From: a virus
Lineage: Duplodnaviria > Caudoviricetes
DNA length: 58,403 bases
Virus record (IMG/VR): IMGVR_UViG_3300007276_000054
Coordinates: 1-58,403 of that record
Reading direction: 5' to 3' (one strand)
This document shows positions 1 to 57,883 of this stretch, one piece after another; position 1 is the stretch's first letter; the number at the start of each line of letters is the position of its first letter. Both the position numbers and the translations under genes were made by a program. A model generated the notes under the pieces. That model saw only the letters and a program-made list of their open reading frames with translations, ran no database searches and was not told where the DNA came from.

Positions 1-189
1 AATCTCTGCGTCTACCCTAGCCTTCGCTTCTTCAGGCGACACGTCAGGCTCATTGTCCAACAGATTTTTTACAATGCCTAACGCCCCGCTGTCTGGAAGC
101 AAGTCACCTACAGTGTCTAGCACATTGGGTGCTGCCTTAGCTAGCCACTTCCCTAGCCCGGTGTCCTTAATCTTTTTCTTTTCAGCCAT
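1..189 (-). CDS. Putative 3-TM holin, N-terminal part (runs off left edge)
   Basis: Not in the ORF track. Manual translation: MAEKKKIKDTGLGKWLAKAAPNVLDTVGDLLPDSGALGIVKNLLDNEPDVSPEEAKARVDAEI. Start overlaps the DUF5675 stop; the matching C-terminus appears at 58288-58403. Confidence 0.7.
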   Translation of the reverse strand, partial: MAEKKKIKDTGLGKWLAKAAPNVLDTVGDLLPDSGALGIVKNLLDNEPDVSPEEAKARVDAEI

Positions 190-6600: not shown

Positions 6601-9600
6601 AGGAAGAACCTTCTTCGTGTCCTTGGCAAGGACAAGAGCACCGATTTGAATGAGCTCACTAGCTTCGGTGACGGGCATACCGTCGCGCTTGTCGTAGAAC
6701 CAACTGTGTCTATAGGGATTCATACCAACCTGAACCCACCCCTCCTGAACACCCTCAGACTTATGGTCCTTGTGGTACTCTTTGGAGGCCATAATTTTCT
6801 CAGCCTTAGCCTTGATGGTTGCGGGGTCGTGATTCACCCAGTCACCGAACATCCTAGCTATTGTAGTCTTGTTTGTTCTAGTTGCAATACTCAACGAGCC
6901 GATTGGACTACCGCCAAACTTGACACCTTTAATTACGCCAGTCTGAGAATAAGCAACAGCCTTTCCGCTGGTGTCGCCAATCTTCTTTGCAAATGAGGAT
7001 GCGGTCTTGTTGCCTTCGTGAACAGAGGCAACCCATACATCGTAAGTATTGTATGCAGGGATATCTAATCTCAACCCAACAAAGTAACCCTCTGGTAATT
7101 CCTTATTGAGGTCGTAGATTCCTGTCTCCAACTGAGAACTTTTCAAGGCTGCGCCAATCTCTGGTAGCGTAGGCATATCGGGCACTACATCAAAAGGCGT
7201 GATAGGCATAACCCCTCTTACCACTTCGATGTATTGTTCCTGTGTAAGCGTCCCCTCTTTCATGGCCTCAATAGCCTCTACATTTCTGGGGACTCTATCA
7301 AGTCTTTGGTTTTTATCTAGCTTGAGTTCTGACTTAAGTTCTGTAAGCTGTTCCTCTGTTAAGTTGGCTGTGCTTAGGAAGCTCTCTAGCCCGGCGCCAG
7401 TTCTCAAGCTTTCATCAAGCTCTCCTTGAAACCTAACCTCCTCGTCGTCAGAAACTTGACGCTCTTCAGGCTTTAAATTCAGCCCCTCTGTAGCCTTTGA
7501 AAGACCAGCTACCGCCTCTGTAACATCTTCGCCCGAAGCCATCCTTCCCGTTAGGTTTTCAATAGCTCTACCTACGTCAGAGATGCCCGGAGTTGGAATC
7601 TTTCCAACAAAAGGCAATGGGCTAAGACCACGGTTTATCAATCCAGAAAACCGCTCAATCAATCCACGCTTCACCTCAATGCTCAAGTTACCGGCAGAGA
7701 TGTCCGCTAGAAGCTCCGTCAAAAACTCATCTGCAAATGCAGCAGACTGCATAAGCTTAACTATGTCGGTCTCCTTTGTTCCGTCAATACCTAAAGCCGT
7801 TAGTTGCTCTTGAACTCTCTCGCTTTGAAGCACTCTACTTAGGTACTTGCCGAACTTGTTGGCAACACCTTCACCTTGAAGAGATTGCGCTAGCTCTGTA
7901 GCTAAACCAACGAGAGCCTCGTCACCCAACATCGCGTCAAGACCTAGCTCGTGGTACCCTTCGTGGTACGCTGTGTTTTCAAGAATCGCAGGAACGAGCA
8001 AATGAATTTTGTAACCGCCGTCTTGTTGCTTAGCGACATACACACCTCTACCAACCTTTCCACCCGGGACAGAGTTTGCCATAGACGCTATAGTCTTATG
8101 AATCATAATCCCCTTGAACCCCTTCTTCGTCTTCGATAATGTCTTTACCGCAGTGATTGTGTTCCTTAAGCCATCCATAACGGCCTGAGGAGAAGATATT
8201 CTACCTAACCCAAGAGGCAAGTTCAATGCCATTTTATCGAGCAACAGATTATTAATCCTGTCAAGGACATTATCCGAGTTTGCTTCGTCAACAACAACGC
8301 TTTCCTTTCCTTCAAACAAGGTGTCAAGACTGTACTCTTCAAGAACTCTGGACACGTTGTCCATTATCTGGTTAGTCGTAGTCCGAGAACCCAAGTCGTG
8401 AGAAACATCAAGGTCTGTTTCCAGCTTTGCTCTCTGCTTAACCAATCCGTTTACTTCGTTCCTAAGTCTTCTTCTCTGGCTTTTGTTTTCAGTGCGTTCG
8501 TAATCAATAGCCTTCTTCGTAATCTGTGTTTGAATATCTACAAGAGTTGAGTAGGCTTCGGGGTCTGATTGTCTTAGCTCTTCATAGTAATCTCTTCGCT
8601 TCTTTCCCTCCGACTCGTTCTTTTGAATAGCGCCTACTAGTCTAGCCATTACTTCTCGGCGACCAGATACAGTTTCTTGAGCGTCTAGTTCTTTCTTGAG
8701 CTGTTGAATTACCAGCTTAGATTGTATAGACGGGATAGAACTTGCAGCTAAGCCAAGTGCCCCAACAGATGAACCAGCACCTGCAATACCACCACCCATC
8801 ACAGCACCTGCATAGAAGCCGTTCTTTATGGCCTTGTCCATTTGGACAACATCAATGTCTTGACCTTTTGCGTTCTGCTCAATGACGTACTGCATGCCGC
8901 CTGTGACAGCCTCTGTAATCGCCTCTTCTCCCATTGCAAGGGGAGTGTTCATGATTGCACCGTAGATGAAATCAGCAGCGCCTTTTGAGTTAGCCCTTAA
9001 GCCTTTAAACCTGTCAAATATTTTAGCACCTACAAATGCGGGCGCACCTTCTGCAACACCATACCCTAGAACGAAACCACCTTGCTGTACAACGTTCATC
9101 TTATTGAACCATTCCTCGTCACGAGCAATGTCATAAGCCGTCAACGAGCCCATCCCAGCTACAACTCCAGCAGTGAGCTTACTGTTTCCTGTAAGCCTTT
9201 GAGTGACAATAGCAGCAGCCATCATTGGCACACTATGGCCGAAGTCAGAGACAACATCTGCCATGCCTCCAGACCAGTCTCCGTTTTCAAACTTTGAAGC
9301 AGGGTCAACTTGAGGCGTTGAACTGTACCTATCAATAGAATTTGATAATTCCTTATAGGCTTTACGGTGCATGTCTGTCTTCTGCCTTCCGTATGCCCAC
9401 TCCCCAAACGCTAACTCAACAGCGTTTACGCCAACGTCCTCTAATCCGACACCTAACGTGCCCACTATCTTAACAACTTCTGAGCCTAACCCACGGAAGA
9501 AATCAGCAGTAACGTTACGTCCTTCAGACGTGTCACCGATGTACCCAGTGTCGTTGAGGTCCGCCATAATGTCGTACTCCTCAAGGAGGTGACGCTCAAG

Positions 9601-13677: not shown

Positions 13678-16600
13678 TTATTCTTTTTGGTCGTTATGCA
13701 ATGGTGAAACAGCATATACTGCGTTTACAGCAAAGAGCTCTACCGAAGCAGTGTTGTCGTTAGTTAGTTTTATTTTAGCGTGATAGTCTCTGATTTTATC
13801 TCCATTGATTTCGTCTGGAGAAACTGCCATCATAGTGCCACCGACACCACCAACGAAGGAGCCGCTAACCTGAATTGTATTTCTGTCTAAAACTTTTGTT
13901 ATTGTAACACCCTGACTGGCCTGACTGTTTGCTGCTAGCAAGAACATCGTGTCCCCTAAATTAAACGGAAGGTTGCTAATACGGCTAGAAAAAGTAATCT
14001 GATTGAGGCCACCTCCACCAACCGCGCTAACTGTGCCAAGCACCACCTTATGGGATGTGTTGGCCGTTGAGTTAGCTGTAATGTCCTTAGGTATCACAGT
14101 GTAGTACATGCCTTCCCTCTCCTCGTACATAGGCTCTGTGATGTTTGTAGTCTGCTCCGTGTTAGAAATAACAGCGGCCCATGTATCACTACCTTCCAAG
14201 CTTAGTGCGTTGTAAACCTTGACAGAGGATGGATTTTGCTTAGCCACTAATTCCACAACAGAATTAAACTGGTTCCCGTAAAAGTTGTTGTACGTAGAGC
14301 TTACGTTGTGTCTGTAAATCTGACCGTTCTCGAAGGAGAAGAATCTATTGTGCAGGTTTGCGTAAAGCTCAGGGTTAAATGAGTATTCAGTTAACCAAAA
14401 GTTCTTTGTCGCACTCCAAGCAACAGTCTTCCCGTCGTCATCCGCCCCTGCCGCAACAACAACATCTGCGCTCGCATCGTTACTTTCCAGAGCAGCAATA
14501 GCAACACACTGAGTAGGAAGCTTAATTGAACCGTCAGATGGATTGAATTGACAAACCCCACGAAACTTTCCTTTCGAGTGAATCACGTCCATCTCGATAG
14601 TCGCAGTACCCTTGTTTAGAGCGGGCTCAATAAAAACAGAGGCACGCTCTGTAAGCCTGTCAATATACATCACAGAACTTCCAACCTTATTCCACTGAGG
14701 CAACCTCTCCACTGGACGAATCACGTCAGAACTCCAAGTCACTGGGTCTTTATCCCAAGTCAGTAGATTCTCAAAAGAACTTACAGGCTTCACCTTTCCG
14801 CTTGCTGATGCGATTGTCGGATTAGTGTCCGGTGTAGGCACATCGCCAACATCAACACTACCTATTGAAATATCGTTTACTTGTTGACCTTCAACAGTGA
14901 CCACATACTCGCTGTTCTCTGGGTCGAAACCACAAGGGACTCTTGGAATCTGTTCTCTTACTATGAGGTCTGCGAATAACCCTTCAAAGAATGACTCCAT
15001 CTTAACGTCACTAATCGGCTCGATGCCTTTAGCTGACACCCTAACAACTTTACCTGCCTCCATGTCACAGAAGTAGGTGACACCGAACCTTTCAATAACA
15101 GACTCAGGGTTTCTTCCCGGGCCGTAAATTCCAGCGTAGTATGTCTCTGTCCCTAGTACGTTCTTGCTGGTAACAAGCATACCGTCTTTTGCTGATTCAA
15201 TCAACTGCCTGCCTACAGGGGTTACGCTGCACTTCTTTTCTTGAAGGACAAGTAAAGACTCTCCTTTATCTACAAGGTATGTGATGAAACCATCAGATGA
15301 ATTATAGTCCTTGTATGGGAACAGCACAGGATTAAACGATGACAAGTTCAATCTAGAGGAATCAGAAACAAAAGGCTCGCTATATGTTACTGCTGATGTT
15401 CTCGCAATTTCTTTTTGGTCAGGCGTTTCTATGTGAGGTCTTCCGACGCTGACTGCATGAGAGTCAAAAAAGTCACTAATCCGTTCATCCTCGACTACAT
15501 ACTTGGCATACGTAGCGCTATCAACGTCAATCGGACTGAAGGGACGGACAAGGTCGGCCTGAAGAGCGGGTATGTAAGGGACTTCAGGGTTAGTCAATTG
15601 CTCCCTGATTCTCATGTACACGTCTCCTTGGTCTAGGGTAATCACCCCGGGAAACAATCCGTTACTTCCTGTAGCCGATATTGTATTGCTGCCAAAAGAT
15701 GTACCAACGACGTTTTGATTGAATGAGTTTGAGGGGTGAGTAGTGTATGTATGTGTTCCGTCTCCCTCATCAAAGACATTTTCCACGAACGTATGCCCGC
15801 TAGTAGTTCCGCTGGTCAATACCTTGTCTCCACGGTACAATCTTTGAGTGGAGCTAAATCTATTGGGTGTGATTACAGAGATAGAAAACGTCGGAGACGT
15901 AGAATTACTCCTGTCTCCAGCGTGAGTACGAACTCCACCGACTTCAACAATATCATACTGTTCTCCTACTTCGAAGTAAACCTTTGTCTCTGAGGACCTC
16001 TTAGGTCTGTATATTTCTACTAGGCACCGCTGCGAGAAAAAGTCCACTCCTTTTCTTACAGCCTCTCTATCGAATCCCGGTGATGAGTTGTCTCTAATAG
16101 TCAGAAACCATCCGGTAGACCTATAGTTATCTTCGTCGTCTTCCGACGTCGTGTCCGTAAGCTTAATAGGGTTCTCATCGTCGTCTTGATAATACTTGTA
16201 TGAGGTGATTTTAAACTCAGTCATAGGGCGAACAATACCCTCACCGTCTGAATATTCAAGAACCCTGAGTACGTCACCCTCTTTGTACTCATAGCTAATC
16301 TCAGCACCCTTAAAGTCCTTGTATGAGTTTGACTTACCCTCGAAGGCACGCATAGACAAGAATATCTGACCGTTTATACCGCCTTCAAGACCTTGCAATA
16401 CCGGCCTTGTTTTCACCCCGTCGTTTGAACGTATGTCAGTGAAGTCTGTTCTCTTCCCTAGTGCAGCCTCGGCAATAGAAACTTGCAGTATCTTCTCATA
16501 GGTGTTGTTCTTAGAGTATACCGGAGCCCACTTTGTGGCCCACTCTGGTGGCTCATGAAGAACCCTAAAGTCTACACTTGTTCTTCCTTCCCTTCCCTGT

Positions 16601-18918
16601 CTCTGGGCATTACCAAAGTGAGGGACGCTTATCTCTGAAATCTTTTGAACTCCAGACGCTCTATTTCTGTGGTCGTAGTAGACCATGCCAAAGTCATGTC
16701 CCGCACCAGCCTTGAACGAAGTAAGGTCTGAGCCGTCAGATTGAATAATATCCAACGCCCCTCCAGCAACATCATAGTCAATAAAGTAAGACCTTATAGC
16801 CCCGTTGTTTCCGTTGCTCCAATCACGAAGTCCTTTACCCGATACTGGGTTTACGTATTGACTGTCTATGATAAGACTAATGTTAGGCCCGCTAAATTGA
16901 TATGCTGTAAACCCGTTATTAAGTACACCTCCCCCTTGAAAGGTGCCGGCTATTGGGTTGGTGCTACCATTAACAAAATCATTCCCAATCACTGACCCTG
17001 AGCTAGTGGTTTGCACAGGCGCTACAGCGTGGACAGCTTCTAAGTCTACACCAATGCAGCGAATTTTAAATTTCACCGTGCTATCAACCTCATTAAGCTC
17101 AGCCGAAGCAATCTTATAATCTAAAACACCTTCCATCCATACCGCTAGCCTGTCTGCGTCACTACTGTTACCGGCTGTCTGATTCCCAGCGCTAGCATGA
17201 ACCATTGCGCTTGCTCCAGAAAGGATGTGAGGGTTATTAGCCGGATTAGTGAGTGGTTCGCTATTGTAAGTAACAGGCAACTGTGCCTCTAAGCCTACAA
17301 TATTTTCTTGAATCCAAGTAAAAAACTCAGCCGTTGTGTTTGCGGACGGTGCAGAGAATTGAGACTGAAAGGTAAGATTACCTATTGGCTTTAAACTAAT
17401 GGCGTTGTAGTTGTTGTCGCTATCAAGAACAAAGACGCTACTAGAGTGAATCAAAGTATCCCCACCGCCGGAGTACGTTGCTGCTGTATACTGCTGCCTA
17501 GTGGCGCCAACAGCATCACCGGTTGCTTGGCCTGCCTGAACACCCTGAGTTGCCACTAAAGCGACCTTACTAGATGCTAGGCTAACGTTGAAATCAACCA
17601 CACCCTGATTAGCCTGAACCCCTCCAGAAGGGAAGTTAGATAAGTTAAGGTTGAAATGGATTCCGTCAGTTGTTGAATCTCCAAATCTGGCAATAGGACT
17701 TGATGGTAACCCCACACCAAACGCTGGGTTGCCGCCCACCTCAGCAAACATATGTTGATTCCGCTCAAGCTCACTATTACTGGTTGTGATGACTTCAGTC
17801 TCACCGTCAACCATAGGCAGGTTTAAGTTTATTGCCGTCGCTTCACGTGGGGAAAAAACACTATAAGAATAAACGTCTGTCTTCTCTAGGTTATCAAACC
17901 CTTCTACGTAATCGCCGTACATTAAACGACCGTTACATACAGCTTGACTAGACGCAAGCCTAGGCACAGCGTCAAAGGGCTTATTGACCTCTTCATCACT
18001 CAGAGCAGGGTAAACACCGTCGTTTCTAAATGTGAATGACTGGGTGCCTCCGGATATATTGTTGTCTAGTTCCGCAACCTTAAGAAACAATTGCTCGTTA
18101 TTCTTTCTTGCAAACGCACGAATCTTACGTACAGGGCCGTCAGAGTTAGATACGGTAACCTCCAGTTCATTGTTCAAGCCTCCAAGGAACTCCTGTGAAG
18201 GAGCATTAAAAGCCATGTTTGTAGGGCTTACAGCGAGGTCGCTATAGACACCTAAGGCAGAAACTTCTCCGTCGTCGTACACGTATTGATACGTGAATTG
18301 GAAACAGCTTTCTTTTAGATTGTTATATCCAATACTATTGTTTGTGACAAACGCAAAGGTGGCAGGAGCTTGAGGTGGTTGCTTGCACACAGTAAGAAAC
18401 TTATTCTTCTGAACGACTGTCCCCGTGTTTAGGCTCGGGTGATAGTTTCCTAGGAGTAGCTTTGTAGCGTTTATTTTTCTTGGCTCGTTGCGGTTGTCCG
18501 TAAAGTATAGAAGGTGTTCCTGATGCTGGTTAATGACCACATCCCCCTTCACAAAAGCATCACGCTGAAAATTCAAAACAGAATCCTCGTAGAGTTTTTC
18601 GTACTTGTCTGTAACAGAATCATATCTGTAAATCCCATGATTGCCACCTGAGTTGTACAGGAAAAAATACATGCACTTACCGGCCTCGCAAGAAACTGTA
18701 CCTACGATTCGATTGTCTCCGCTAGACGGGATTGAATCTGTCCCTGCGTCGGCTGGAGCAACGGCTGTGTTCCCCTCTACGTTTTTGATGATTCCTTGAC
18801 TACCGTCTGACTCATGAGATACGCGCACGTTAAGTGCGTCAGTCATTTCAAACGGCTTGACTAACCTCTCGTCTTCATCCTTGTTGAGGTACTGTGGTAT
18901 TAGCTTTTCGATTGCCAT
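13678..18918 (-). CDS. Tail stabilization / muzzle protein (P22 gp10-like, crAss-type)
   Basis: N-terminal LNKDEDERLV...DALNVRV, YFTDNRNEPRKIN, GRLMYGDYVEGFD, YGPGRNPES and C-terminal GDKIRDY motifs; follows the ring-protein genes. Confidence 0.8.
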   Translation of the reverse strand: MAIEKLIPQYLNKDEDERLVKPFEMTDALNVRVSHESDGSQGIIKNVEGNTAVAPADAGTDSIPSSGDNRIVGTVSCEAGKCMYFFLYNSGGNHGIYRYDSVTDKYEKLYEDSVLNFQRDAFVKGDVVINQHQEHLLYFTDNRNEPRKINATKLLLGNYHPSLNTGTVVQKNKFLTVCKQPPQAPATFAFVTNNSIGYNNLKESCFQFTYQYVYDDGEVSALGVYSDLAVSPTNMAFNAPSQEFLGGLNNELEVTVSNSDGPVRKIRAFARKNNEQLFLKVAELDNNISGGTQSFTFRNDGVYPALSDEEVNKPFDAVPRLASSQAVCNGRLMYGDYVEGFDNLEKTDVYSYSVFSPREATAINLNLPMVDGETEVITTSNSELERNQHMFAEVGGNPAFGVGLPSSPIARFGDSTTDGIHFNLNLSNFPSGGVQANQGVVDFNVSLASSKVALVATQGVQAGQATGDAVGATRQQYTAATYSGGGDTLIHSSSVFVLDSDNNYNAISLKPIGNLTFQSQFSAPSANTTAEFFTWIQENIVGLEAQLPVTYNSEPLTNPANNPHILSGASAMVHASAGNQTAGNSSDADRLAVWMEGVLDYKIASAELNEVDSTVKFKIRCIGVDLEAVHAVAPVQTTSSGSVIGNDFVNGSTNPIAGTFQGGGVLNNGFTAYQFSGPNISLIIDSQYVNPVSGKGLRDWSNGNNGAIRSYFIDYDVAGGALDIIQSDGSDLTSFKAGAGHDFGMVYYDHRNRASGVQKISEISVPHFGNAQRQGREGRTSVDFRVLHEPPEWATKWAPVYSKNNTYEKILQVSIAEAALGKRTDFTDIRSNDGVKTRPVLQGLEGGINGQIFLSMRAFEGKSNSYKDFKGAEISYEYKEGDVLRVLEYSDGEGIVRPMTEFKITSYKYYQDDDENPIKLTDTTSEDDEDNYRSTGWFLTIRDNSSPGFDREAVRKGVDFFSQRCLVEIYRPKRSSETKVYFEVGEQYDIVEVGGVRTHAGDRSNSTSPTFSISVITPNRFSSTQRLYRGDKVLTSGTTSGHTFVENVFDEGDGTHTYTTHPSNSFNQNVVGTSFGSNTISATGSNGLFPGVITLDQGDVYMRIREQLTNPEVPYIPALQADLVRPFSPIDVDSATYAKYVVEDERISDFFDSHAVSVGRPHIETPDQKEIARTSAVTYSEPFVSDSSRLNLSSFNPVLFPYKDYNSSDGFITYLVDKGESLLVLQEKKCSVTPVGRQLIESAKDGMLVTSKNVLGTETYYAGIYGPGRNPESVIERFGVTYFCDMEAGKVVRVSAKGIEPISDVKMESFFEGLFADLIVREQIPRVPCGFDPENSEYVVTVEGQQVNDISIGSVDVGDVPTPDTNPTIASASGKVKPVSSFENLLTWDKDPVTWSSDVIRPVERLPQWNKVGSSVMYIDRLTERASVFIEPALNKGTATIEMDVIHSKGKFRGVCQFNPSDGSIKLPTQCVAIAALESNDASADVVVAAGADDDGKTVAWSATKNFWLTEYSFNPELYANLHNRFFSFENGQIYRHNVSSTYNNFYGNQFNSVVELVAKQNPSSVKVYNALSLEGSDTWAAVISNTEQTTNITEPMYEEREGMYYTVIPKDITANSTANTSHKVVLGTVSAVGGGGLNQITFSSRISNLPFNLGDTMFLLAANSQASQGVTITKVLDRNTIQVSGSFVGGVGGTMMAVSPDEINGDKIRDYHAKIKLTNDNTASVELFAVNAVYAVSPLHNDQKE

Positions 18919-24376: not shown

Positions 24377-24655
24377 TCAACCTCTCAATCTGCTCTTCAA
24401 CGCCCTGTAGAACTTGTCAAATTCATCAGCGTTATCAAAAGCCTTACTGTAATCCTCTACCCAAAGAACGTCCTTCTCTATAGGGTCTTCGTCTTCTACC
24501 CTTTCAATGGTTTCTTCGTTAAGTACTGTGTTGTCAACCCTAGATATGATTCTGTAGTAGTCCCCTTCTGTCACTCCTTTTGCAGGGGTGATTAACACAT
24601 CAGTTTCTTTGTATGCGTACCTAATGTAAAACTTATCTTTTAGCTCGTCATCCAT
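24377..24655 (-). CDS. Hypothetical protein
   Basis: 92-aa ORF translationally coupled to the upstream gene. Confidence 0.6.
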   Translation of the reverse strand: MDDELKDKFYIRYAYKETDVLITPAKGVTEGDYYRIISRVDNTVLNEETIERVEDEDPIEKDVLWVEDYSKAFDNADEFDKFYRALKSRLRG

Positions 24656-26340
24656 TATGGCACCGGGGTTAGATTGATTTCCGAAGTATTAGTACTAGCC
24701 GTTCCGTGTTTGTTTAACAGCTTAGCGAATAATGAAGGTGACAGCTCAGTGGTCTTAATGTTATCCAATGAAAGGTCTCCTTGATATGTTATACTTGAGC
24801 TTAAACCAGTCTCCCCTGTCTCCATTAAACTGGCGTTGGTTGTGTAGGTCTGCGGTTGCACAACGAAGTACAAGTAGTAGTCATCGTTGGTCGTCCTAAA
24901 AGTGCTCGGTATTTCAATCTCAATTTTCCTCCACAGAGTAGTCGAACTATTTACACCCCCATTTCCTGAGATTTGATAGTTGCTCCATTCGTTTTCTGTG
25001 CCAGTATTGTAACCACCATACTGAGATGAAGAAGCTCCCGGCCCCCCATAAACTCCGTCAGTGCCCGTATACACCCTAGCCCTTGTCTTCCCTCTTGAAA
25101 AGCCTGACACATTATTAACGTGCCTCGTCTCAACGTTGGCAAGCCATGTTGCTGAAGCGTCATTAGACGTGGCAGTGTCGTCTATATATATCGATAAGCA
25201 CCCGCAGTTCCCCTTAAAAGCGTATAGAAAAAAGCTAAGCACCAAGGTGTTACTGGTGTCATTCATTGACTGGTTCCAGTTAATAGCTTTACTTCTGAAA
25301 ATGAATTGCTTAGTGTTAGAGCTTCCGGATTGACCGCCTGCATTTGCTGACGTCTCACAGTATAGGAACCTAGAATTAGTGTCGGATACTGAGGTATCCA
25401 TTCCCTCTGTTAGGGTTCCCGAAGCTGGTGTAACTGATGAGGTGTTTGTTCCACCCCTCGGACCTGTATTCGATGAACCAGTACCGTTACCCGAACTTGA
25501 AGGGCCGCAACCCCACCTAGCAATATTTTTATTTAGCTCAATACTAGGGGTGTCGGAATTGCTCGAAGTTTTCCAGTAAGTTCCGTTTACAGCCCCGGAG
25601 CCATTCACCCAGTCAGTGAGGTTGTTGCTACCTTGAGTGCCTCCGCCATTACTAGGTGACCATAAAGTAGTTATACCTTGACCGTCCATAGTAACTATCT
25701 CCCCGCCAGATTCATTTCCAACATCGTCTGGTGCTGTTCCTGCGGCGGCTGAGTTACTATTGATTGCTATTGAGTTCCACTTACTTACCTCCGTCTGTGT
25801 GTAGTGAATCCTAACGGTTGGAGATTCCAACGCTACGGGGGCTCCATCATCAACAGCAGATTGGAATCTGAATATGTTTCCGTTAGCATTGACTGTGGTC
25901 TCAAAGTCAAAGACGAGGAGGTTTAGATTACTTGGTAAACTCATTAGAGTACCCAAGCCGTGCATGTCCGTTGCGCCCCCTACAACGTGATTAACATAAG
26001 CAATACCAACACTACTTAAGTGGTTAGCTGTAGTAGCCGTTCCCATCGATTCATAAGTTCCCTGAAGAGACCTGCCCGGTTGTATCGTAAATGTAACGTT
26101 ACCGGAATTGGCCCTTGTACAAACCCTGAATTCATAACCAACTATAACGGCGCCAGAAGGTATACCACTATTAGAAATCCCCCCCATCCTTACTGTAGAA
26201 CCTACAGTCGCACAATCAATGTATTGGTTGTCAGTAGGACTGCCTGCTACGAAGTTAGCTTCGGTCATCCCACTCCCGTAAGCAGCTCCTCCCGAAAGAG
26301 ATTGAACATCATCGAAGAAAAGGAAGTCTGTACTAGGCAT
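24655..26340 (-). CDS. Putative receptor-binding/fibre protein with MAM-like domain
   Basis: Start revised to MPSTDF, coupled to the upstream stop. TGSSNTGP...FLYCETS...LSFFLYAF.G..G.L.IY...W..IEI...GDLSLDNI matches the MAM-domain pattern. Confidence 0.6.
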   Translation of the reverse strand: MPSTDFLFFDDVQSLSGGAAYGSGMTEANFVAGSPTDNQYIDCATVGSTVRMGGISNSGIPSGAVIVGYEFRVCTRANSGNVTFTIQPGRSLQGTYESMGTATTANHLSSVGIAYVNHVVGGATDMHGLGTLMSLPSNLNLLVFDFETTVNANGNIFRFQSAVDDGAPVALESPTVRIHYTQTEVSKWNSIAINSNSAAAGTAPDDVGNESGGEIVTMDGQGITTLWSPSNGGGTQGSNNLTDWVNGSGAVNGTYWKTSSNSDTPSIELNKNIARWGCGPSSSGNGTGSSNTGPRGGTNTSSVTPASGTLTEGMDTSVSDTNSRFLYCETSANAGGQSGSSNTKQFIFRSKAINWNQSMNDTSNTLVLSFFLYAFKGNCGCLSIYIDDTATSNDASATWLANVETRHVNNVSGFSRGKTRARVYTGTDGVYGGPGASSSQYGGYNTGTENEWSNYQISGNGGVNSSTTLWRKIEIEIPSTFRTTNDDYYLYFVVQPQTYTTNASLMETGETGLSSSITYQGDLSLDNIKTTELSPSLFAKLLNKHGTASTNTSEINLTPVP

Positions 26341-27434
26341 TAGGCAATCTCCAAGAAATCGAAAGAAGGATTGAAATGCACAAGAGTGCAAGGGGTGCCA
26401 CCCGAGGTTATCGACCTTATTGCATACCCCATGTGTCGGACTATGTCACCGGTAGTAGTAGGGATATTGTAAGTGAAATGTCCAGCATCGGTGTCAGACA
26501 AATACAAAATAGCTCCCGTAGCAAAAGTGCCGACAATCTCCGTGTTGGGGACAAGGACCGCACCTTGTAAAAAAAGAGTTACGGATTGCTGAGACGACAA
26601 AGTTTCATTAACATACAAACCCAGCATACCTGTAGCGGTAGTAGATGAGTTTGCTTGAGCAGGAACAAGTGTTCCGTTACTGGCGTATCTATGAATCTGA
26701 CCCTTGGTTAGAGAGCTTGCGGTAATCCTCATGGAGATATTGGTCCCCGTATTAGAGTAAGCCGAGCTTGCCGTTGAACTAGCGTTTAGTAAAGCATCAC
26801 CGTAAGCGTTATCCGTGTCCCAGACCGTACCGGTAGGCTTAGTTCCGTTAGACTTTGAGTTTATAACCCCAAAGTTCTGAAGCCTATAAGTACTATTGTT
26901 GTTTTGTTGGCTGACCGTGTAGGCTTGAAACGTAAGATATTGTTCAGCATCAATATTTGTATTGCTGTCCCCACCGGTAAGAACCCTGTGCTCAGCCCAG
27001 TCGTCTATTACCGTTCCGCCAGAACCACCATCAGCAAAGGAAAGGACTCCAGAGCCGTTTGTTTTTAGGAACTGCCCGGAGGTGCCGTCTGCCGCAGGTA
27101 GAGTCAGTGCTAAGTTTGCTGACATTGTTGCGGGCGCCTGAAGGCCTACGTAATGGTCTCCAGCGTCGTTGCTAGACTCGTAAAATTTTAGTTGAAGAAC
27201 AGTTGACCCTACTGGGTGTCGTAAATTAACAGCCCCGGCCTCTATCTCAACGAGGTCACTTGCTGCATTAACTGGAGAACTCGTGAGCTTGAGTAAATTA
27301 GAACCGTTGTCTGACACAAAAGTCAGAGCAGAGCTTTGGTCTAGCGTAAATGTCCTGCTAGCGTCCGCAGTGAGGTTTGCAGTAGCAAGATTGGTGTTGT
27401 CACCATCCGTAAGTATTTTTTTCCAAGTAGCCAT
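26340..27434 (-). CDS. Tail fibre protein
   Basis: YVGLQAP...LTLPAADGTSGQFLKTNGSGVLSF fibre motif; C-terminal G..LYLS...G...P..TGDIVR.MGY...HFNPS.D domain. Confidence 0.75.
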   Translation of the reverse strand: MATWKKILTDGDNTNLATANLTADASRTFTLDQSSALTFVSDNGSNLLKLTSSPVNAASDLVEIEAGAVNLRHPVGSTVLQLKFYESSNDAGDHYVGLQAPATMSANLALTLPAADGTSGQFLKTNGSGVLSFADGGSGGTVIDDWAEHRVLTGGDSNTNIDAEQYLTFQAYTVSQQNNNSTYRLQNFGVINSKSNGTKPTGTVWDTDNAYGDALLNASSTASSAYSNTGTNISMRITASSLTKGQIHRYASNGTLVPAQANSSTTATGMLGLYVNETLSSQQSVTLFLQGAVLVPNTEIVGTFATGAILYLSDTDAGHFTYNIPTTTGDIVRHMGYAIRSITSGGTPCTLVHFNPSFDFLEIA

Positions 27435-41419: not shown

Positions 41420-41839
41420 TTAGCGCAGGTCTGTGTCGTGCTTCTTAGAGCCCTTGATGTAGCTATTGACCCTACCCATAGCCCAAGCAGCCATCGGAGC
41501 GCCGCGTCTAGAGCCTGACGAAAGCCAAGCACCCTGACCACGTCGGTACACCTTTGCTAGGGTTCCGTAAGAAATTCCGGAACTCTTGGCTTTCTTCTGG
41601 AGAGTGGCCTTGGTTGAGGCGTTTATTGGCTTGGCCTTAACCTTCGCTCCTTTCTTTGCCTCGGTTCTTTTCTTAAACTTAAGGAAGGAAATCTTCTTTC
41701 CCTTCCTGTACTCGTCTGCCATATCCTTCTTGTTGGCAGCATCCTCCTCTACAGTCGCTTTGATTTCCTTGCCTTGTCCGGGGTCGGTGTATCTAGTAGG
41801 GAGTCCGAGTTTGTATTCCTGTTTTCTCTTACTTGCCAT
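41420..41839 (-). CDS. DUF5824-like small basic protein
   Basis: KKAKSSGISYGTL.KVYRRG.GAW..SGSR.G....WA..RVNS motif. Confidence 0.65.
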   Translation of the reverse strand: MASKRKQEYKLGLPTRYTDPGQGKEIKATVEEDAANKKDMADEYRKGKKISFLKFKKRTEAKKGAKVKAKPINASTKATLQKKAKSSGISYGTLAKVYRRGQGAWLSSGSRRGAPMAAWAMGRVNSYIKGSKKHDTDLR

Positions 41840-42017
41840 GGCTGGCGATTTTAAACGAAGCCTCCTTTACGGCACCGGGGTGTGGCTGGTAATCTCCCTT
41901 CATGAGGTAGTATCTACCCTGCTCCTCCATCCAGTGATACCCGGACGGTGGTGGGACAGATACCTTCTTGGAGGATACGCTGAGCTTTGGGCGTTCTGAT
42001 TTACGAGCCGTCTCCAT
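41829..42017 (-). CDS. Conserved small phage protein
   Basis: PPSGYHWM...LMKGDY.PH.GA...A.F motif. Confidence 0.6.
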   Translation of the reverse strand: METARKSERPKLSVSSKKVSVPPPSGYHWMEEQGRYYLMKGDYQPHPGAVKEASFKIASHGK

Positions 42018-42243
42018 CTTTCTGGCGTTTACGCTCTTTGGAAATCATCTTATTCATTGCGTCTTCACGCATTCCTGAAAGAAGATACACCATAGAGTAA
42101 TTCTTTAGTGTTGAGTCGGGTATGGATACCTCTGGAAATTCCTTTGCAAACCTAGCCTTAGTCTCTTTGAGAACAGACTCTTTTGTTACTGGCTCTTTAG
42201 GGTCACCTGCAACGGCACCTGATTTTGCTTTCTTGTACTTCAC
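42001..42243 (-). CDS. Small basic hypothetical protein
   Basis: Probable GTG start 4 nt after TATATTTG (MKYKKAKSGAVAGDPKE...). Confidence 0.55.
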   Translation of the reverse strand: MKYKKAKSGAVAGDPKEPVTKESVLKETKARFAKEFPEVSIPDSTLKNYSMVYLLSGMREDAMNKMISKERKRQKDGDGS

Positions 42244-42257
42244 ACAGCAAATATAAC

Positions 42258-42524
42258 TCACTTAGATAGACCCCAGTTGTGATTGCTGTAGCCAACATGA
42301 ACCTTATAGTCTATAGACTTAATAGTGAGCCGGAGGTTTTCCCGCTGCTTTTTTATGCGGGCAGGAGTCTTAAATGCGTAAGATATTAATCTGTCCCTAT
42401 GAATGTCAGATGACCATATCAAGTCCTTGTCGTTCCCGGCTAGGACGACACCCTTGACGGGGTACTCCTTCTTAGATTTAGCATCGTATAGAACAACGTC
42501 ACAAAGGTGGATTGGGTCTTTCAT
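42258..42524 (-). CDS. Hypothetical protein
   Basis: 88 aa; ATG lies 6 nt after the CGTTAT of the repeated motif. Confidence 0.6.
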   Translation of the reverse strand: MKDPIHLCDVVLYDAKSKKEYPVKGVVLAGNDKDLIWSSDIHRDRLISYAFKTPARIKKQRENLRLTIKSIDYKVHVGYSNHNWGLSK

Positions 42525-42530
42525 AGACCT

Positions 42531-42557
42531 ATAACGCTACCGACCTAAGATTTATTG
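42531..42557 (-). promoter_or_regulatory. Repeated CAATAW-N14/15-CGTT motif, copy 2
   Basis: Minus strand: CAATAA-atcttaggtcggtag-CGTTAT-aggtct-ATG. Confidence 0.55.
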
Positions 42558-42758
42558 CAGCTGGTTTTTAGCCAACAGAACTTTGACTTCTTGGACCTCT
42601 TTTAGCAACTGCTTTACGTCGTCCTTCATCTCAGAATTGTCTGTCTCCAAGGCAGTTACTCTCCCTTTCAATGAGCTGTAGTCTGATTGATGCTTAATCC
42701 AAATACCAATTAACGAGCCCGCTATGAGCAGTAGCTCAAATTGTGTCATTGCGTCCAT
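42552..42758 (-). CDS. Small membrane protein (one TM + coiled coil), holin/XhlA-like
   Basis: LLLIAGSLIGIW followed by heptads LKGRVTALE...VKQLL..VQEVK.LL. Confidence 0.55.
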   Translation of the reverse strand: MDAMTQFELLLIAGSLIGIWIKHQSDYSSLKGRVTALETDNSEMKDDVKQLLKEVQEVKVLLAKNQLQ

Positions 42759-42788
42759 GCTCACAAAAGTAATAACTGAAAGGCTTGT

Positions 42789-43997
42789 TTATTTCAATAC
42801 AATGACGTGACCTGATGCATTGACAATGTGTGAAGAAGCTACTTTTGAAGCCTTAAGAGAGTACACGTAACTGCCATCAGAAACGCCCGAAAGCGCCCAC
42901 TGCTCTCCCGGGTCATTGCTGTACCAAACAATCTGACCCCATCTATTATAAACGTTAAGCTCCCAAGTCCTCCAGCACTCAGGGTCTGTAACGGCATAGA
43001 ATGTATCATTAATACCGTCTCCATTAGGCGTAACGGCATTGGGAATAAATACGTCAACCTCGTCACACACCATACCTACTATGTCTTCACACAGGAGTCC
43101 AGAGTCGCAATCAATGTATTCTGTTACAACAGAGTATTCTGTTACCATTACCGTGTCAGTTAGGTATATGTACTCCGTAAGGACGACGTCTACATATGTG
43201 GTGTCGTAAACGGTTGTCTCCGTGAAGACCGTGTCCGTTAAGTATATGTAGTTGTCTATGTAGGTGGTGTCATACATGTACACCTCGATGTAATTGTCTA
43301 CTATCAGGGTGTCTATGATAGTTAGCGTTAAAGTGTCGGGCGGCATCTCCACGTACACTGTGTCGGTCTGATACACATAGACCGTATCCACCAACGTGGG
43401 GTCTGGGCAGAATGTCAATCTGTTATCACTCAGGTTGATGTCGGGGTAGGTTTGAGTTTGATTGAAGCTAGTTCCGGAGCTCCACCCTTCGGGGAATGGA
43501 AAGTCCTCGTAGTCCGCCGTTTGAGATACGTTTATCTGCCATATTACAACCTCCCAGCAGTAGCCCTCTAGCTCTGTATCTATGATGCAGTCCCAACTAA
43601 ACGGTGGATTGAGAACGAAATTAGTGAATCCGTTTGTCCATCCCGTATTGTTTGAGGACATAACATAAGACCATCCCGGATGAAACGTATTGGACGTGCA
43701 GTCCGTGTTCTCTCCATAGTCCTCTCCAGTTACCTCGTCCACGTAGTGGAGGCCAAACACAATATGAGTTACCGTCTCGTTGTTTGAGACATTGAAGCCG
43801 CCGCTTTCTTCGCACGTGTTACCATCGAATTGGGTGAACTCATTGCAGCCACAGTTCTCAGTGTTGAGCCATTGGACTTGAAAGGAGTGTAGTCCGTTAG
43901 AAACGGCGGCGCCAGTGTACCCTAGTAGTGCTATGTCGCAGGTCTGAGAGTAGGATACAAAGGGGGCTAAGAGAAGCAGAAGAAGGGAAGGTTTCAT
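42789..43997 (-). CDS. Secreted protein with signal peptide and T9SS type-B (gliding-motility-associated, CHU_C/TIGR04131-type) C-terminal domain
   Basis: MKPSLLLLLLAPFVSYS|Q; C-terminus VFIPNAVTPNGDGINDTF...LNVYNRWGQIVW...W...DGSYVYSL...GHVIVLK; DT[VLT] repeat stalk. Confidence 0.85.
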   Translation of the reverse strand: MKPSLLLLLLAPFVSYSQTCDIALLGYTGAAVSNGLHSFQVQWLNTENCGCNEFTQFDGNTCEESGGFNVSNNETVTHIVFGLHYVDEVTGEDYGENTDCTSNTFHPGWSYVMSSNNTGWTNGFTNFVLNPPFSWDCIIDTELEGYCWEVVIWQINVSQTADYEDFPFPEGWSSGTSFNQTQTYPDINLSDNRLTFCPDPTLVDTVYVYQTDTVYVEMPPDTLTLTIIDTLIVDNYIEVYMYDTTYIDNYIYLTDTVFTETTVYDTTYVDVVLTEYIYLTDTVMVTEYSVVTEYIDCDSGLLCEDIVGMVCDEVDVFIPNAVTPNGDGINDTFYAVTDPECWRTWELNVYNRWGQIVWYSNDPGEQWALSGVSDGSYVYSLKASKVASSHIVNASGHVIVLK

Positions 43998-44160
43998 GCC
44001 CCAAATCTAGCAACTTTTTGGGCACAGCTTTCCCTCATTCACTCTCTAGTTATTGTGACGTTAGGGGCTCACGATTACCCCATGTGTCTAAGCCCCGTAG
44101 GTGTCAAGCTGGTCCGCCCAAGCGGGCCAAGTGCGATACCGTTTTCGTGCCAAGGCAAAG

Positions 44161-44191
44161 CAAAGGTACACGAAAAAAACTACAAAGTCAA
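44161..44191 (-). promoter_or_regulatory. Full-consensus Bacteroidota promoter
   Basis: Minus strand TTG-N20-TACCTTTG; no ORF directly downstream. Confidence 0.6.
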
Positions 44192-44198
44192 GTACTTA

Positions 44199-44288
44199 TT
44201 ACGCTTCTTTAATGGCTGAGCGAATTGCTCGTATCACCATCAAGAACCAGATTGTTATAACAGAGTATGCTACGTATGAAGAGACCAT
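44199..44288 (-). CDS. 29-aa hydrophobic peptide
   Basis: MVSSYVAYSVITIWFLMVIRAIRSAIKEA; TACTTTTG at 44315-44322 upstream. Confidence 0.4.
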   Translation of the reverse strand: MVSSYVAYSVITIWFLMVIRAIRSAIKEA

Positions 44289-44751
44289 GCCTAATGTCAA
44301 TTTTGTTTCGGGCGCAAAAGTACATTTTGATTCGCCATTTGACTAATCAACCTTGTGAAAAAAGATGAGAGCAATACAGAGTCAGGGGATTATATATATA
44401 TAGAATCGAAATCGCATCAAAACCGAAACGATTTGTTGTAACCCACCCCCTTGGATTCGTGTCGGGTCGGCGCTAACATTCCAGCGTTTTGCCCAGCACC
44501 ATTGGAACCACAGCCCTCGTGACTGACACCACACCATGCAACGTGACGTGAACAGAGTCTCCGCACATCGATGCAGGTGCACAGGAGATAGGTACAATCA
44601 CACCCCTGCCTTTGCCGAGTTCGATTGAGTACCCATCTGTGGGTGTTAACATCTGTTGGCAATCACTGGATACTAGAACAAGATTGATATCCGTTTAACA
44701 CTCAACAACGCGACAGCTAATATATAACAGGCATCACATAACATACTGACA

Positions 44752-45243
44752 ATGAACAAGTTAAACATCACATTCAAGCGGGGCATCAACACAATCGATT
44801 TGAGCGCCGAGGGGTACGGAGTCTTCCAGCAAAAGGTCACTGACGTTTTCGTCGATGGCGAATTCAAAATGTTCATCTCCAAGGACGAGGTGCTCAAGGA
44901 CTACTCTGCCTTCGAGGACAATGACAGCGAAATGGTTGCTGGGGGCCAGACCTTAAAGGAGTGCAAAGAGAACGTTCAGCGCGTCCTGTTGAAGGAGGCT
45001 CGTGAGGACAATCAAGATGCATATGAGGACGCGGTACTCGAGCGTCGACACATGCGAAATGTCAAGGACGCTTGCACCACCCCCAGCGAACGATTCGAGG
45101 CTCAGGAAGCCATTGATATCGCACAGGCCAAACTGGATGCATTGCAGTCTGAGTTCGAGGCGATACTGGACCGCCTAAAGGACCTGATGCCTAGCCACGC
45201 ACGGAGCATGGCGCAAATCCGATTAGGTAAGTCAGCACAATAA
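44752..45243 (+). CDS. Early hypothetical protein (C-terminal coiled coil)
   Basis: First ORF of the plus-strand arm; C-ending codon bias. Confidence 0.7.
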   Translation: MNKLNITFKRGINTIDLSAEGYGVFQQKVTDVFVDGEFKMFISKDEVLKDYSAFEDNDSEMVAGGQTLKECKENVQRVLLKEAREDNQDAYEDAVLERRHMRNVKDACTTPSERFEAQEAIDIAQAKLDALQSEFEAILDRLKDLMPSHARSMAQIRLGKSAQ

Positions 45244-52011: not shown

Positions 52012-52085
52012 GCCCTCGTAGCTCAGATGGATAGAGCAACTGCCTTCTAAGCAGTAGGCCATAGGTTCGATTCCTATCGAGGGTG
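52012..52085 (+). tRNA. tRNA-Arg (anticodon UCU)
   Basis: Acceptor GCCCTCG/CGAGGGT, D arm GCTC..GAGC, anticodon arm ACTGC-CTTCTAA-GCAGT, T arm ATAGG-TTCGATT-CCTAT; CCA not encoded. Confidence 0.95.
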
Positions 52086-52089
52086 CATT

Positions 52090-55978: not shown

Positions 55979-57883
55979 ATGAGTAAACCATCTCAGACCC
56001 CGGATATTCCATGGGGTCCAGTAGGATACGTGACCTATAAAAGAACGTATTCTCGCAAATTAAATGAAAAGGCCAGCGAAGAATGGCCTGACACTGTTTC
56101 CCGTGTGCTTTCTGCCTGCGACAAACAGCTTGGTGTTGACTTCACAGATGAAGAGGAACAAGAAGTTCGTGACATCATGTTAAACTTGAAGGGCACGGTA
56201 GCAGGTAGGTTCCTGTGGCAGCTTGGAACAAAGACAGTTGATAGATTGGGACTCCCATCACTACAGAATTGCGCCTTCGTTGTTGTAGACCAACCCGTGC
56301 GTCCCTTCACATGGGCGTTCGAGATGTTAATGCTTGGAAGTGGCGTTGGGTTCAACATCCAGAGAGAGAATGTTTACCAGCTGCCTAAGCTTCAAAAGAA
56401 AAAGGTAAAGCTGGTAAGGAAAGATGAGAACGATGCAGACTTTATAGTTCCAGACTCTCGTGAAGGGTGGGTGGAGTTGCTTGACCGTGTGATTAGGGCG
56501 TCCTTTGAAACAGGACAGGGCTTCTCCTACGCAACACACCTTATCAGACCCGCCGGAGCACCAATCAAAGGCTTTGGAGGAACTGCGTCTGGAGCAGAAG
56601 ACTTGGTGAAGGGGATGGTGAGCATCAATGAGTTGCTTAACTCTCGTTCCGGTAAAAGACTGAGACCAGTTGACTGCCTTGATATCATGAATATCATTGG
56701 TAGCGTAGTGGTAGCAGGAAACGTTCGTCGGTCAGCTCAGATTGCTCTTGGCGACCACGATGACATTGAGTACTTACGCGCTAAGCGTTGGGACTTAGGG
56801 AGCATTCCAAACTGGAGGGCTATGTCAAATAACTCTGTTGTGTGCGACGACATCAGCCTTCTTCCTGAAGAGTTTTGGGAGGGGTACAAAGGAAACGGAG
56901 AACCGTATGGGTTAATCAACCTTGAATCCTCTCGTCGCATGGGTAGGACTAACGAGACTCAGTATCCTGACCCAGACGTTCAAGGATACAACCCTTGTGC
57001 TGAACAATCATTAGCTAACTTTGAGACGTGCTGCTTGGCTGAGATTTTCTTGCCAAACATTGAGTCAGAAGAGGAGTTACTTAAGGTTTCTAAGTACCTG
57101 TACAGAATCAATAAGCATAGTCTTGCGATTAAATGCGCAGTGAAGGAGACTGAAGAGATTGTCCATCAAAACATGCGAATGGGTATTGGGGTTACCGGGT
57201 ACCTACAAGCAACTGAAGAACAGCGTCAATGGTTATCTGGCGTTTACCCTAAACTAAGAGAATACGACGATGACTATTCAAGACTACGAGGATTTCCAAA
57301 GTCTATTAAGCTCACCACAGTTAAGCCCAGTGGGACGTTGTCTTTACTTGCTGGCGTTACACCGGGAGCTCATCCCGGATACTCAGAATATTTCATTAGA
57401 CGAATTAGAATGGCTTCAGGTAGCGACCTTGTACAAGCTTGTCGGGACCGAGGGTATAGCATAGAGTACGTCAAGAACTTTGATGGCACTGAAGACCATG
57501 GAACCGTAGTCGTTGAATTTCCGTGCAAGTTTCCTGAGGGTACGATGTACGCAAAAGACATGACTGCTATTGACCAACTGAAAGTAATCAAAAGATTGCA
57601 GCAAGAGTGGTCAGACAACAGCGTGTCTGTAACAATCTACTATCGCAAAGAGGAGCTAGAAGACATCAAGATGTGGCTCGCATTAGAGTATGACAACGTA
57701 AAGTCTGTTAGCTTTCTACTGCATAATGAACACGGGTTTGCGCAAGCTCCGTTTGAAGAGATTTCTAAGGAGGTCTATGACGATATGAGCTCTAAGGTTA
57801 GGCCCATTACTGGCCTTGGTGTGTTAGACATGGGGGACATCGAGATTCAAGATTGTGATACAGGAGCATGCCCAGTACGATGA
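55979..57883 (+). CDS. nrdJ: Class II (B12-dependent) ribonucleotide reductase
   Basis: YKRTYSR, LQNCAF, DSREGW, VVAGNVRRSA, NPCAE, CCLAE, TTVKPSGTLS and C-terminal C..GACPVR; no beta-subunit gene. Confidence 0.9.
   Translation: MSKPSQTPDIPWGPVGYVTYKRTYSRKLNEKASEEWPDTVSRVLSACDKQLGVDFTDEEEQEVRDIMLNLKGTVAGRFLWQLGTKTVDRLGLPSLQNCAFVVVDQPVRPFTWAFEMLMLGSGVGFNIQRENVYQLPKLQKKKVKLVRKDENDADFIVPDSREGWVELLDRVIRASFETGQGFSYATHLIRPAGAPIKGFGGTASGAEDLVKGMVSINELLNSRSGKRLRPVDCLDIMNIIGSVVVAGNVRRSAQIALGDHDDIEYLRAKRWDLGSIPNWRAMSNNSVVCDDISLLPEEFWEGYKGNGEPYGLINLESSRRMGRTNETQYPDPDVQGYNPCAEQSLANFETCCLAEIFLPNIESEEELLKVSKYLYRINKHSLAIKCAVKETEEIVHQNMRMGIGVTGYLQATEEQRQWLSGVYPKLREYDDDYSRLRGFPKSIKLTTVKPSGTLSLLAGVTPGAHPGYSEYFIRRIRMASGSDLVQACRDRGYSIEYVKNFDGTEDHGTVVVEFPCKFPEGTMYAKDMTAIDQLKVIKRLQQEWSDNSVSVTIYYRKEELEDIKMWLALEYDNVKSVSFLLHNEHGFAQAPFEEISKEVYDDMSSKVRPITGLGVLDMGDIEIQDCDTGACPVR

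Follow-up and report, generated by a model that had tools for sequence, protein, structure and literature searches.

A putative orphan type-B cargo for the host type IX secretion system in a crAss-like phage

Why would a phage encode a protein that ends in the sorting domain of a bacterial secretion system? The question is raised by a gene at positions 42789..43997 of IMG/VR virus record IMGVR_UViG_3300007276_000054, which was analysed over its whole length of 58,403 bp (hereafter, the window) and is rated 100% complete. A first-pass annotation had proposed that this gene encodes cargo for the host's type IX secretion system (T9SS), and the list of open reading frames (ORFs) gives the identical frame, with an ATG start and 402 aa on the minus strand. 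It belongs to the core genes of a marine crAss-like phage whose genome is complete, and the reading we favour, to which we give a probability of roughly 60%, is that its product is exported by the host T9SS and fixed on the surface of the infected cell. The features on which this reading is built are as follows.

42789..43997, minus strand: the whole gene, a putative phage-encoded orphan type-B T9SS cargo (ORF list; 100% self-match, without internal stops)
43947..43997, minus strand: signal peptide, aa 1-17, predicted cleavage between SYS and QT, with Gln at +1 (sequence and family pattern)
43398..43943, minus strand: beta-sandwich domain rich in Cys and Trp, aa 19-200, without a named family (AlphaFold2 (AF2) model and profile searches)
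43110..43397, minus strand: DT repeat, aa 201-296, with eight D-T-[V/L/T] sequons, acidic, rich in Y, T, I and V and beta-periodic
42792..43109, minus strand: Cys-containing linker (three Cys) and type-B T9SS C-terminal domain (CTD), aa 297-402 (PF13585, AF2 and Foldseek)
44002..44009, minus strand: TAGATTTG, resembling a -7 promoter element of the Bacteroidota type, 4 nt 5' of the ATG

Domain architecture of the protein

At the C-terminus, the family CHU_C (PF13585) matches aa 317-385 (nt 42843-43049; model positions 2-74 of 86) with an E-value of 4.4e-14 and 52.8 bits, against a gathering cut-off of 27. The match ends at residue 385 of 402, so that the domain sits at the extreme C-terminus of the protein, whose last residues are ...GHVIVLK. 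TIGR04131 covers part of the same region (E 3.4e-7, model positions 3-52 of 85) with 30.3 bits, below the NCBI cut-off of 35. A complete type-B CTD had been described from the letters alone; the profile match bears out its class, while 'complete' was slightly generous by the NCBIfam model. The domain is modelled confidently by AF2 (pLDDT 86-92), and Foldseek pairs it with solved T9SS CTDs (8glk_D, 8gl6_D and PorZ 5m11; NucA and RemA bound to the translocon). A search of the whole protein against PHROGs gave nothing useful.

At the other end, the protein begins with MKPSLLLLLLAPFVSYS, followed by QTCD. The signal peptide is predicted from the layout of its n-, h- and c-regions together with family conservation. 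A presequence of at least 8 aa stands directly before Q-x?-C-[DN] in 132 of 161 distinct family sequences, and its final residue is A in 91, S in 25, G in 9, T in 6 and P in 1; the remaining 29 are N-terminally truncated gene calls or fragments. Both the layout and the family pattern agree with the Sec signal with Gln at +1 that had been read from the sequence.

Between these two signals, the first-pass annotation had placed a stalk with eight D-T-[V/L/T] motifs at about 43140-43395. We located the eight motifs at aa 204-283 (nt 43149-43388). In 10,000 shuffles of aa 201-300 that kept the composition, the mean number of motifs was 1.73 and none reached eight; when the whole mature protein was shuffled, 13 of 10,000 did. 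The motifs of the stalk thus stood, but it is no generic flexible linker: the repeat shows a strict, even beta-strand periodicity. Across the 161 family sequences it consists mainly of T (15.7%), I (14.0%), D (12.2%), Y (11.8%), V (10.5%) and E (9.3%), with K and H absent and G, A and S nearly absent. Successive residues fall in turn on a Y/T face and on an I/V/L/D/E face, and DT-to-DT spacings of 8, 10, 12, 14 and 16 occur 300, 214, 183, 177 and 133 times, against 60, 24, 12 and 11 times for spacings of 9, 11, 13 and 15. Alternating faces and even spacing together give a beta-strand signature; the repeat is no flexible linker of the PT type. AF2 did not model the repeat (pLDDT 25-31). It is strongly conserved, with a non-synonymous divergence (dN) of 0.08-0.12 against close relatives, and sequons stand in the same place, numbering 5-16, in all of the best 120 homologs. 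All eight triplets match the O-glycosylation sequon of the Bacteroidota, D(S/T)(A/I/L/V/M/T), as the accessible part of PMC8550257 gives it, and glycosylation of the repeat threonines is plausible.

The Cys/Trp-rich globular domain reported earlier was also recovered: 8 of the 12 Cys of the protein, together with 7 Trp, lie within aa 20-197, and an alignment of 49 homologs contains invariant columns of Cys and of Trp. This N-terminal domain had no match in Pfam, NCBIfam or PHROGs. The full-length AF2 model is poor (pLDDT 60); modelled by itself from 44 sequences, the domain forms a beta-sandwich of 7-8 strands (pLDDT 68, pTM 0.69), and its most conserved motifs, ENCGCNEF, WQINxSQT and TQxYPD, fall in long low-confidence loops. 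Foldseek against the PDB returned nothing at E<=1e-3, with Asf1 and CARDB on top (8.7e-3). The wide VIA search placed 4yok_A (DUF3823) first (Z 6.2, root-mean-square deviation (rmsd) 3.1, 101 aligned residues); an agarose carbohydrate-binding module (CBM), 8wac_A, gave Z 5.3 (rmsd 3.9, 106 aligned), another, 8wae_B, a Foldseek E-value of 4.3e-2, and a cohesin fold a single weak row (3ghp_B, E 2.8e-2, TM 0.23), but all of these Ig-like, CARDB-like and CBM-like matches are within the range reached by unrelated beta-sandwiches. A sequence-profile search of the PDB with the domain gave merely two chance phospholipase A2 rows (E 0.12), and feature searches of the ESM Atlas had no usable match for it or for the repeat. 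Judging by its invariant W, N, Q, Y and D residues, the domain is probably a binding module.

The phage, its gene and its family

The minus-strand arm of the window encodes the portal, the large terminase (TerL), several proteins of 'virion structural protein' PHROGs, a collagen-like fibre and a GroES-like protein, while genes of ArdC-like, exonuclease, primase-helicase and class II ribonucleotide reductase type make up part of the plus-strand arm. Two large minus-strand genes point to a crAss-like podovirus of marine Bacteroidota: one for a 3301-aa giant protein with DUF7178 (649-10554; 89% identity in G001, the closest full relative) and one for a 1746-aa protein ending in the crAss muzzle C-terminal domain (13678-18918). 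The closest TerL relative belongs to the Caudoviricetes sp. record MW202828 (47.5%), followed by the Flavobacterium 'elemo' phages (42%), and more distant ones to Cellulophaga, Tenacibaculum, Maribacter and crAss-like Bacteroides phages; counted by host over 124 records, the relatives come from Flavobacterium (68), Cellulophaga (15), Bacteroides (4), Tenacibaculum (2), Azobacteroides (2) and Maribacter (1). Megablast with 20 kb of the window found no match among cultured phages.

The promoter motif that had been noticed 4 nt from the ATG was found as TAGATTTG. It belongs to the pattern TAnnTTTG, which we take to be the Bacteroidota -7 element. Over the whole window TANNTTTG occurs at chance level (38 matches, 37.07 expected), and 7 of the 38 lie within 60 nt 5' of a same-strand gene start, where 1.19 would be expected (binomial p 1.6e-4). 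Such upstream enrichment fits a phage that uses Bacteroidota-type promoters, and the placement of the motif and the TerL relatives both point to Bacteroidota as the host phylum. With the putative promoter this close to the ATG, the mRNA would be leaderless or nearly so. Between the two gene arms lies a divergent region of 750 bp, with an 81-aa ORF (44101-44346, plus strand) that is 94% conserved in G001, above the genome median, and a (TA)n run at about 44390-44404. A natural variant, contig X10, has a 1-nt insertion at 44014, just 5' of the element. The RNA check of the upstream intergenic region with Rfam and ARAGORN had as its sole match a tRNA-Arg at 52012-52086.

Could the gene be a chimeric assembly, which the first-pass annotation had listed as a possible refutation? 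Contigs of three other independent studies span the gene and both flanks (X6, 41800-44800; X10, 41800-44586; X4, 41800-44215), and X10 differs within the gene by seven substitutions, five synonymous and two conservative (V272I and E63D), with no indel. The bridging contigs and this indel-free, mostly synonymous variant show that the gene is no chimera. G001 (58,876 bp, with direct terminal repeats) has the gene at the same position; the two proteins share 82.6% identity, the median over 51 compared genes being 84.2%. The stretch is found near-identically in 20 sequencing runs from 11 studies, three rows of which may be the source itself; among the runs listed as carrying it there was no RNA dataset. 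Against the related locus L003, dN over the whole gene is 0.11. Since dS is saturated (>2) or incomputable, we say only that dN is much smaller than dS; the gene is under purifying selection.

This setting also bears on whether the protein belongs to the virion, as an accessory protein of capsid or tail whose CTD-like and beta-sandwich domains are Ig-like and whose hydrophobic N-terminus is no signal peptide. Ig-like domains are common on phage virions, and the gene lies on the strand of the structural genes. However, a small residue precedes the Gln after a presequence in the 132 family sequences mentioned above, the 12 Cys suggest an oxidising compartment, no PHROG virion family matches, and the gene stands about 7 kb from the head and tail block, beside the divergent promoter region. 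We consider a virion role very improbable.

The cargo family is large and almost confined to viruses; the gene is no one-off. A word-seeded search found at least 400 metagenome proteins at E<=1e-3, of which the best 120 are full-length, 45-83% identical and have PF13585 without exception; all of them keep the ...[A/S]-Q-(T)-C-D junction, and they contain 11-16 Cys, save for one 288-aa fragment with 7. IMG/VR holds 74 distinct viral loci, on contigs of 4 to 179 kb. A profile of the N-terminal domain against 1.84 billion representative proteins reached only 63 clusters, and CHU_C is present in 28 of the 35 longer ones scanned; the closest structural cluster of the ESM Atlas is 100% viral and 100% CHU_C. 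Using two conserved peptide motifs of the N-terminal domain, confirmed by tblastn, a pattern scan of one genome per species over 185,579 prokaryote species turned up just two loci: one in a 'Pseudomonadales' metagenome-assembled genome (MAG), where the contig measures 61.6 kb, the other in a Flavobacteriaceae MAG, where it measures 29 kb. Each shows synteny to viral loci, which points to phage contigs within the bins. The family has a GenBank member, a hypothetical protein of 'Virus NIOZ-UU157', which UniRef automatically names a gliding-motility-associated CTD protein. No homolog of the N-terminal domain was found by tblastn in 50,697 phage records, and no cultured phage among them has the domain. 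The same search gave CTD-level matches in two uncultured megaphages of about 635-642 kb (LR745206.1:15118-15474 and LR756502.1:417968-418381), whose CHU_C-like C-termini are 28-32% identical to aa 279-402 and suggest that type-B CTD cargo occurs in huge phages as well.

Some members are much longer, with 950-969 aa (L023:89-2971, L022:1035-3890, L024:2070-4979 and L077:6984-9836). They start with a Peptidase_M43-like zinc protease (HEMGHYLTLYHTF) and have inserts between the N-terminal domain and the DT repeat plus CTD, namely GCTDPxAxNY-type Cys repeats and a CARDB-like module. These extra modules suggest that the family is modular in architecture, as cellular T9SS adhesins and enzymes are. 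The long forms bring up another fate for the protein, namely that after export by the T9SS it is shed to the medium or to outer-membrane vesicles and binds polysaccharide or particles. The peptidase domain, the weak CBM matches (8wac_A and 8wae_B) and the invariant residues rich in W, N, Q, Y and D speak for it, but the fold matches are of the strength that unrelated beta-sandwiches reach, and the type-B CTDs characterised to date, in the accessible part of PMC12618676, anchor or move their substrates on the surface. Release thus appears unlikely to us.

Shuttle supply and surface display

If the protein is a type-B cargo, which shuttle would carry it? According to the accessible part of PMC12618676, type-B substrates require PorP/SprF-family shuttles, which are usually encoded immediately downstream, are present in stoichiometric, limiting amounts and are not recycled; the CTD also decides whether the substrate goes to the gliding track or onto a static anchor. 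In Flavobacterium johnsoniae, 9 of the 12 type-B substrates have an adjacent shuttle gene, and the other 3 are orphans with one common orphan shuttle (PMC12618676). The first-pass annotation had recognised no PorP/SprF-like gene in this DNA, and a search with PF11751 upheld this, finding none in the window at E<=1 and none in five related viral records. As a positive control the same search found five PorP/SprF genes in the Flavobacteriaceae MAG G006, the single Flavobacteriaceae MAG that holds a family-bearing contig, which we used as candidate host. Of the six type-B genes in G006, four each adjoin a shuttle gene, one is an orphan, as is one of the shuttle genes, and the last is that of the phage. 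Lacking a PorP/SprF gene of the phage's own, an orphan type-B cargo would have to borrow a host shuttle. The phage CTD is just 24-29% identical to the five host type-B CTDs of G006, so no candidate shuttle emerges. Nor is the DT repeat, a feature specific to the phage family in this comparison, found upstream of these five host CTDs, which have 0-3 sequons per 150 aa, as compared with 7 for the long form of the phage.

Taken together, the Sec signal, the sequons, the type-B CTD, the absence of PorP/SprF from the phage and the Flavobacteriia-infecting relatives make display on the cell surface by host machinery the most economical reading. The course that we infer for transport, glycosylation and biological role would be the following. 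The protein would be exported by Sec and cleaved by signal peptidase, leaving Gln at +1. In the periplasm its disulfides would form, and the general O-glycosylation system of the Bacteroidota host would probably modify the eight D-T-[V/L/T] threonines. The host type IX translocon would recognise the type-B CTD, and because the phage encodes no shuttle, a PorP/SprF-family shuttle of the host would extract the cargo, as for the 'orphan' type-B substrates of F. johnsoniae. The cargo would then be kept on the outer surface of the infected cell, its N-terminal beta-sandwich held out on the acidic, beta-structured and probably glycosylated repeat. The likely purpose is to give the infected cell an altered surface, for instance one on which phage receptors are masked or occupied or one with different adhesion.

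Several observations weigh against surface display. The TIGR04131 score falls short of its cut-off, the CTD identities of 24-29% name no shuttle, and the fold of the N-terminal domain offers no clue to function. The repeat is beta-periodic and uses T almost exclusively (DT 1313 times in the family repeats, DS 15 times) though the sequon accepts S, and beta-structure rather than glycosylation could therefore dictate D-T-[I/L/V]. Overproduced type-B CTD fusions stay unsecreted unless a shuttle is co-produced (PMC12618676, accessible part), so that a phage cargo made abundantly might export poorly. Finally, that the host has a T9SS and a compatible shuttle is something we only infer.

The behaviour of the fusions leads to a different view of the protein, in which abundant orphan cargo acts as a decoy that ties up PorP/SprF or SprA, so that SprB-like adhesins are no longer exported, gliding halts and phage receptors are lost from the surface. 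It would draw on the scarcity of non-recycled, stoichiometric type-B shuttles, on the retention of overproduced CTD fusions in the cell (both PMC12618676, accessible part) and on the lack of a shuttle gene in the phage and the five related records. It would also account for the regional dN against L003, which is 0.22 for the CTD, against 0.06 for the N-terminal domain and 0.08 for the repeat, as expected if the CTD tracks host shuttles; such faster change of the CTD runs contrary to expectation for a generic export tag. However, a strongly conserved N-terminal domain of 180 aa, a conserved repeat and the fusion to peptidase or CARDB-like modules in the long forms would all be superfluous for a decoy, and no similarity of the CTD to one particular CTD among the five of G006 was found. 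We regard the decoy reading as unlikely.

Equally speculative is the idea that the phage wields the protein as a weapon against the type-B branch. Its quickly evolving CTD would capture the scarce, non-recycled PorP/SprF shuttles or replace SprB-like adhesins on the gliding track, and the host would lose type-B adhesins, gliding and the receptors of competitor flavobacterial phages while displaying a glycan-cloaked binding domain specified by the phage. If true, this would be the first virus to reprogramme the substrate selection of a secretion system for superinfection exclusion.

Neighbouring genes, known systems and meaning

Downstream of the cargo gene lies one more feature.

42552..42764, minus strand: a gene of 70 aa whose product has a hydrophobic helix at its N-terminus and a coiled coil

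This membrane/coiled-coil gene, of 70-79 aa, is co-conserved downstream of the cargo gene among the nearest relatives: the window shares it with L002, L003 and L004, and it is 91% identical in G001. Its product weakly matches Rz-like spanin PHROGs (E 4e-4 and 7e-4) and, below cut-off, DivIC/bZIP. Other lineages have the family gene unit immediately upstream of the terminase, close to DUF5675 or to a gene resembling an endolysin (phrog_33083, E 7.8e-11). In the window a DUF5675 protein (phrog_1501) is encoded at 182-652 (minus strand), and in L042, L044, L050 and L067 DUF5675 (cluster 7) stands between the dockerin-like gene described below and the family gene. The spanin matches and this placement would suit a periplasmic factor that stays in the envelope and, with the small downstream protein, helps to break up the outer membrane when the cell lyses. 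But the spanin matches are marginal, no recognised endolysin adjoins the cargo gene in the window, T or Q stands before the first Cys where a lipobox would be needed, and a working CTD would take the protein out of the periplasm of a T9SS host; it is mainly for the last two reasons that we rate a lysis function as decidedly unlikely.

In 38 of 62 loci the immediate same-strand neighbour of the family gene encodes a secreted Cys-rich protein of about 120 aa (cluster 1); in 44 of the 62 this neighbour lies at most two genes away. It may stand on either side of the family gene, and the genome contexts in which it occurs include several that are unrelated. The C-terminus of the protein is a dockerin-like EF-hand motif, GDxDxDGxVxxxDLLxFLxNYGxC, and neither Pfam nor PHROGs gave a match; there are 31 distinct sequences, for example L032:4042-4404 (plus strand), L014:7277-7642 and L039:5630-5989. 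Neither the window nor its nearest relatives L002-L005 nor 13 other loci have a copy (the best hit of the cluster 1 profile with hmmsearch on the six-frame translation of the window had E 0.28). When the N-terminal domain, with L032 as first row, was co-folded with aa 18-120 of the dockerin-like partner, the score was 0.01 against a mark of 0.32, which is evidence neither way.

Elsewhere in the window, adjacent genes for 578-aa and 364-aa proteins (24655-27434, minus strand) are merely 26% and 32% identical to their G001 counterparts, against a genome median of 84%, and are probably a host-recognition (fibre or receptor-binding) cassette. G001 is otherwise collinear, without a counterpart of the B12-dependent (class II) ribonucleotide reductase gene (55979-57883, plus strand); the first gene of the plus arm (44752-45243, plus strand) has no counterpart there either.

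How does this cargo compare with known systems? The closest in arrangement are the F. johnsoniae orphans (Fjoh_1123, Fjoh_1720, Fjoh_4934), whose shuttle is Fjoh_1677 in the accessible part of PMC12618676: like the phage protein, they have a Sec signal and a type-B CTD and no adjacent porP/sprF-like gene. They are, however, encoded by the cell, whereas the present cargo is encoded by a lytic-type crAss-like phage, with an N-terminal domain that belongs to no named family and occurs almost only in viral sequences, and with a DT repeat that is absent at the five host CTDs of G006. The pairs SprB/SprF and Fjoh_3952/Fjoh_3951 share the CTD class and an adhesin-like all-beta passenger, but they have an adjacent shuttle gene where the phage cargo has no cognate one, and SprB-like proteins run to thousands of residues (an open frame of 3252 aa in G006) against 402 aa here.

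The S-layer of Tannerella forsythia is an example of O-glycosylated T9SS cargo. Such T. forsythia cargo (PMC8550257, accessible part) resembles the phage protein in being exported by Sec, with three-residue sequons and a T9SS CTD; in comparison, the density of the phage sequons (8 in 80 aa, all putative) and their regular, beta-periodic repeat are unusual.

T9SS sorting domains have been reported on phage genes before. 'Cryophage' carries endoglucanase, GH39 and PA14 genes with type-A CTDs, a case that its authors call unique (Bellas et al. 2020, PMC7468147), and crAss-BACON cluster 2 phages have ORFs with T9SS sorting domains (De Jonge et al. 2019, PMC6949934). In the accessible parts of both papers the hijacking of the host T9SS is proposed bioinformatically only. 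The Cryophage CTDs are of type A, served by the general PorV shuttle, whereas the cargo described here is of type B and would need a specific one; and the passengers in those phages are recognisable enzymes or BACON repeats, where here the passenger is almost virus-only and joined to sequon repeats. The first-pass annotation had known of no characterised phage T9SS substrate. This holds in so far as the papers found by our literature search report no experiment on phage T9SS cargo, while the two studies just cited, in the parts accessible, do describe phage ORFs with T9SS CTDs. The search, which covered papers without their supplements, found none on this family or on a phage protein with a type-B CTD.

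The pairing of type-B CTDs with PorP/SprF proteins in the selection of T9SS cargo is an open problem, for which a compact orphan cargo of 402 aa offers a ready probe of shuttle specificity; its dense, regular array of putative sequons could likewise serve as a substrate on which to test the glycosylation system of the Bacteroidota. Marine viral contigs contain the family in abundance, and Flavobacteriia rank among the major degraders of material from algal blooms. Should the protein be displayed, those Flavobacteriia that are infected would bear a surface specified by the virus, which could affect superinfection, aggregation and attachment to particles.

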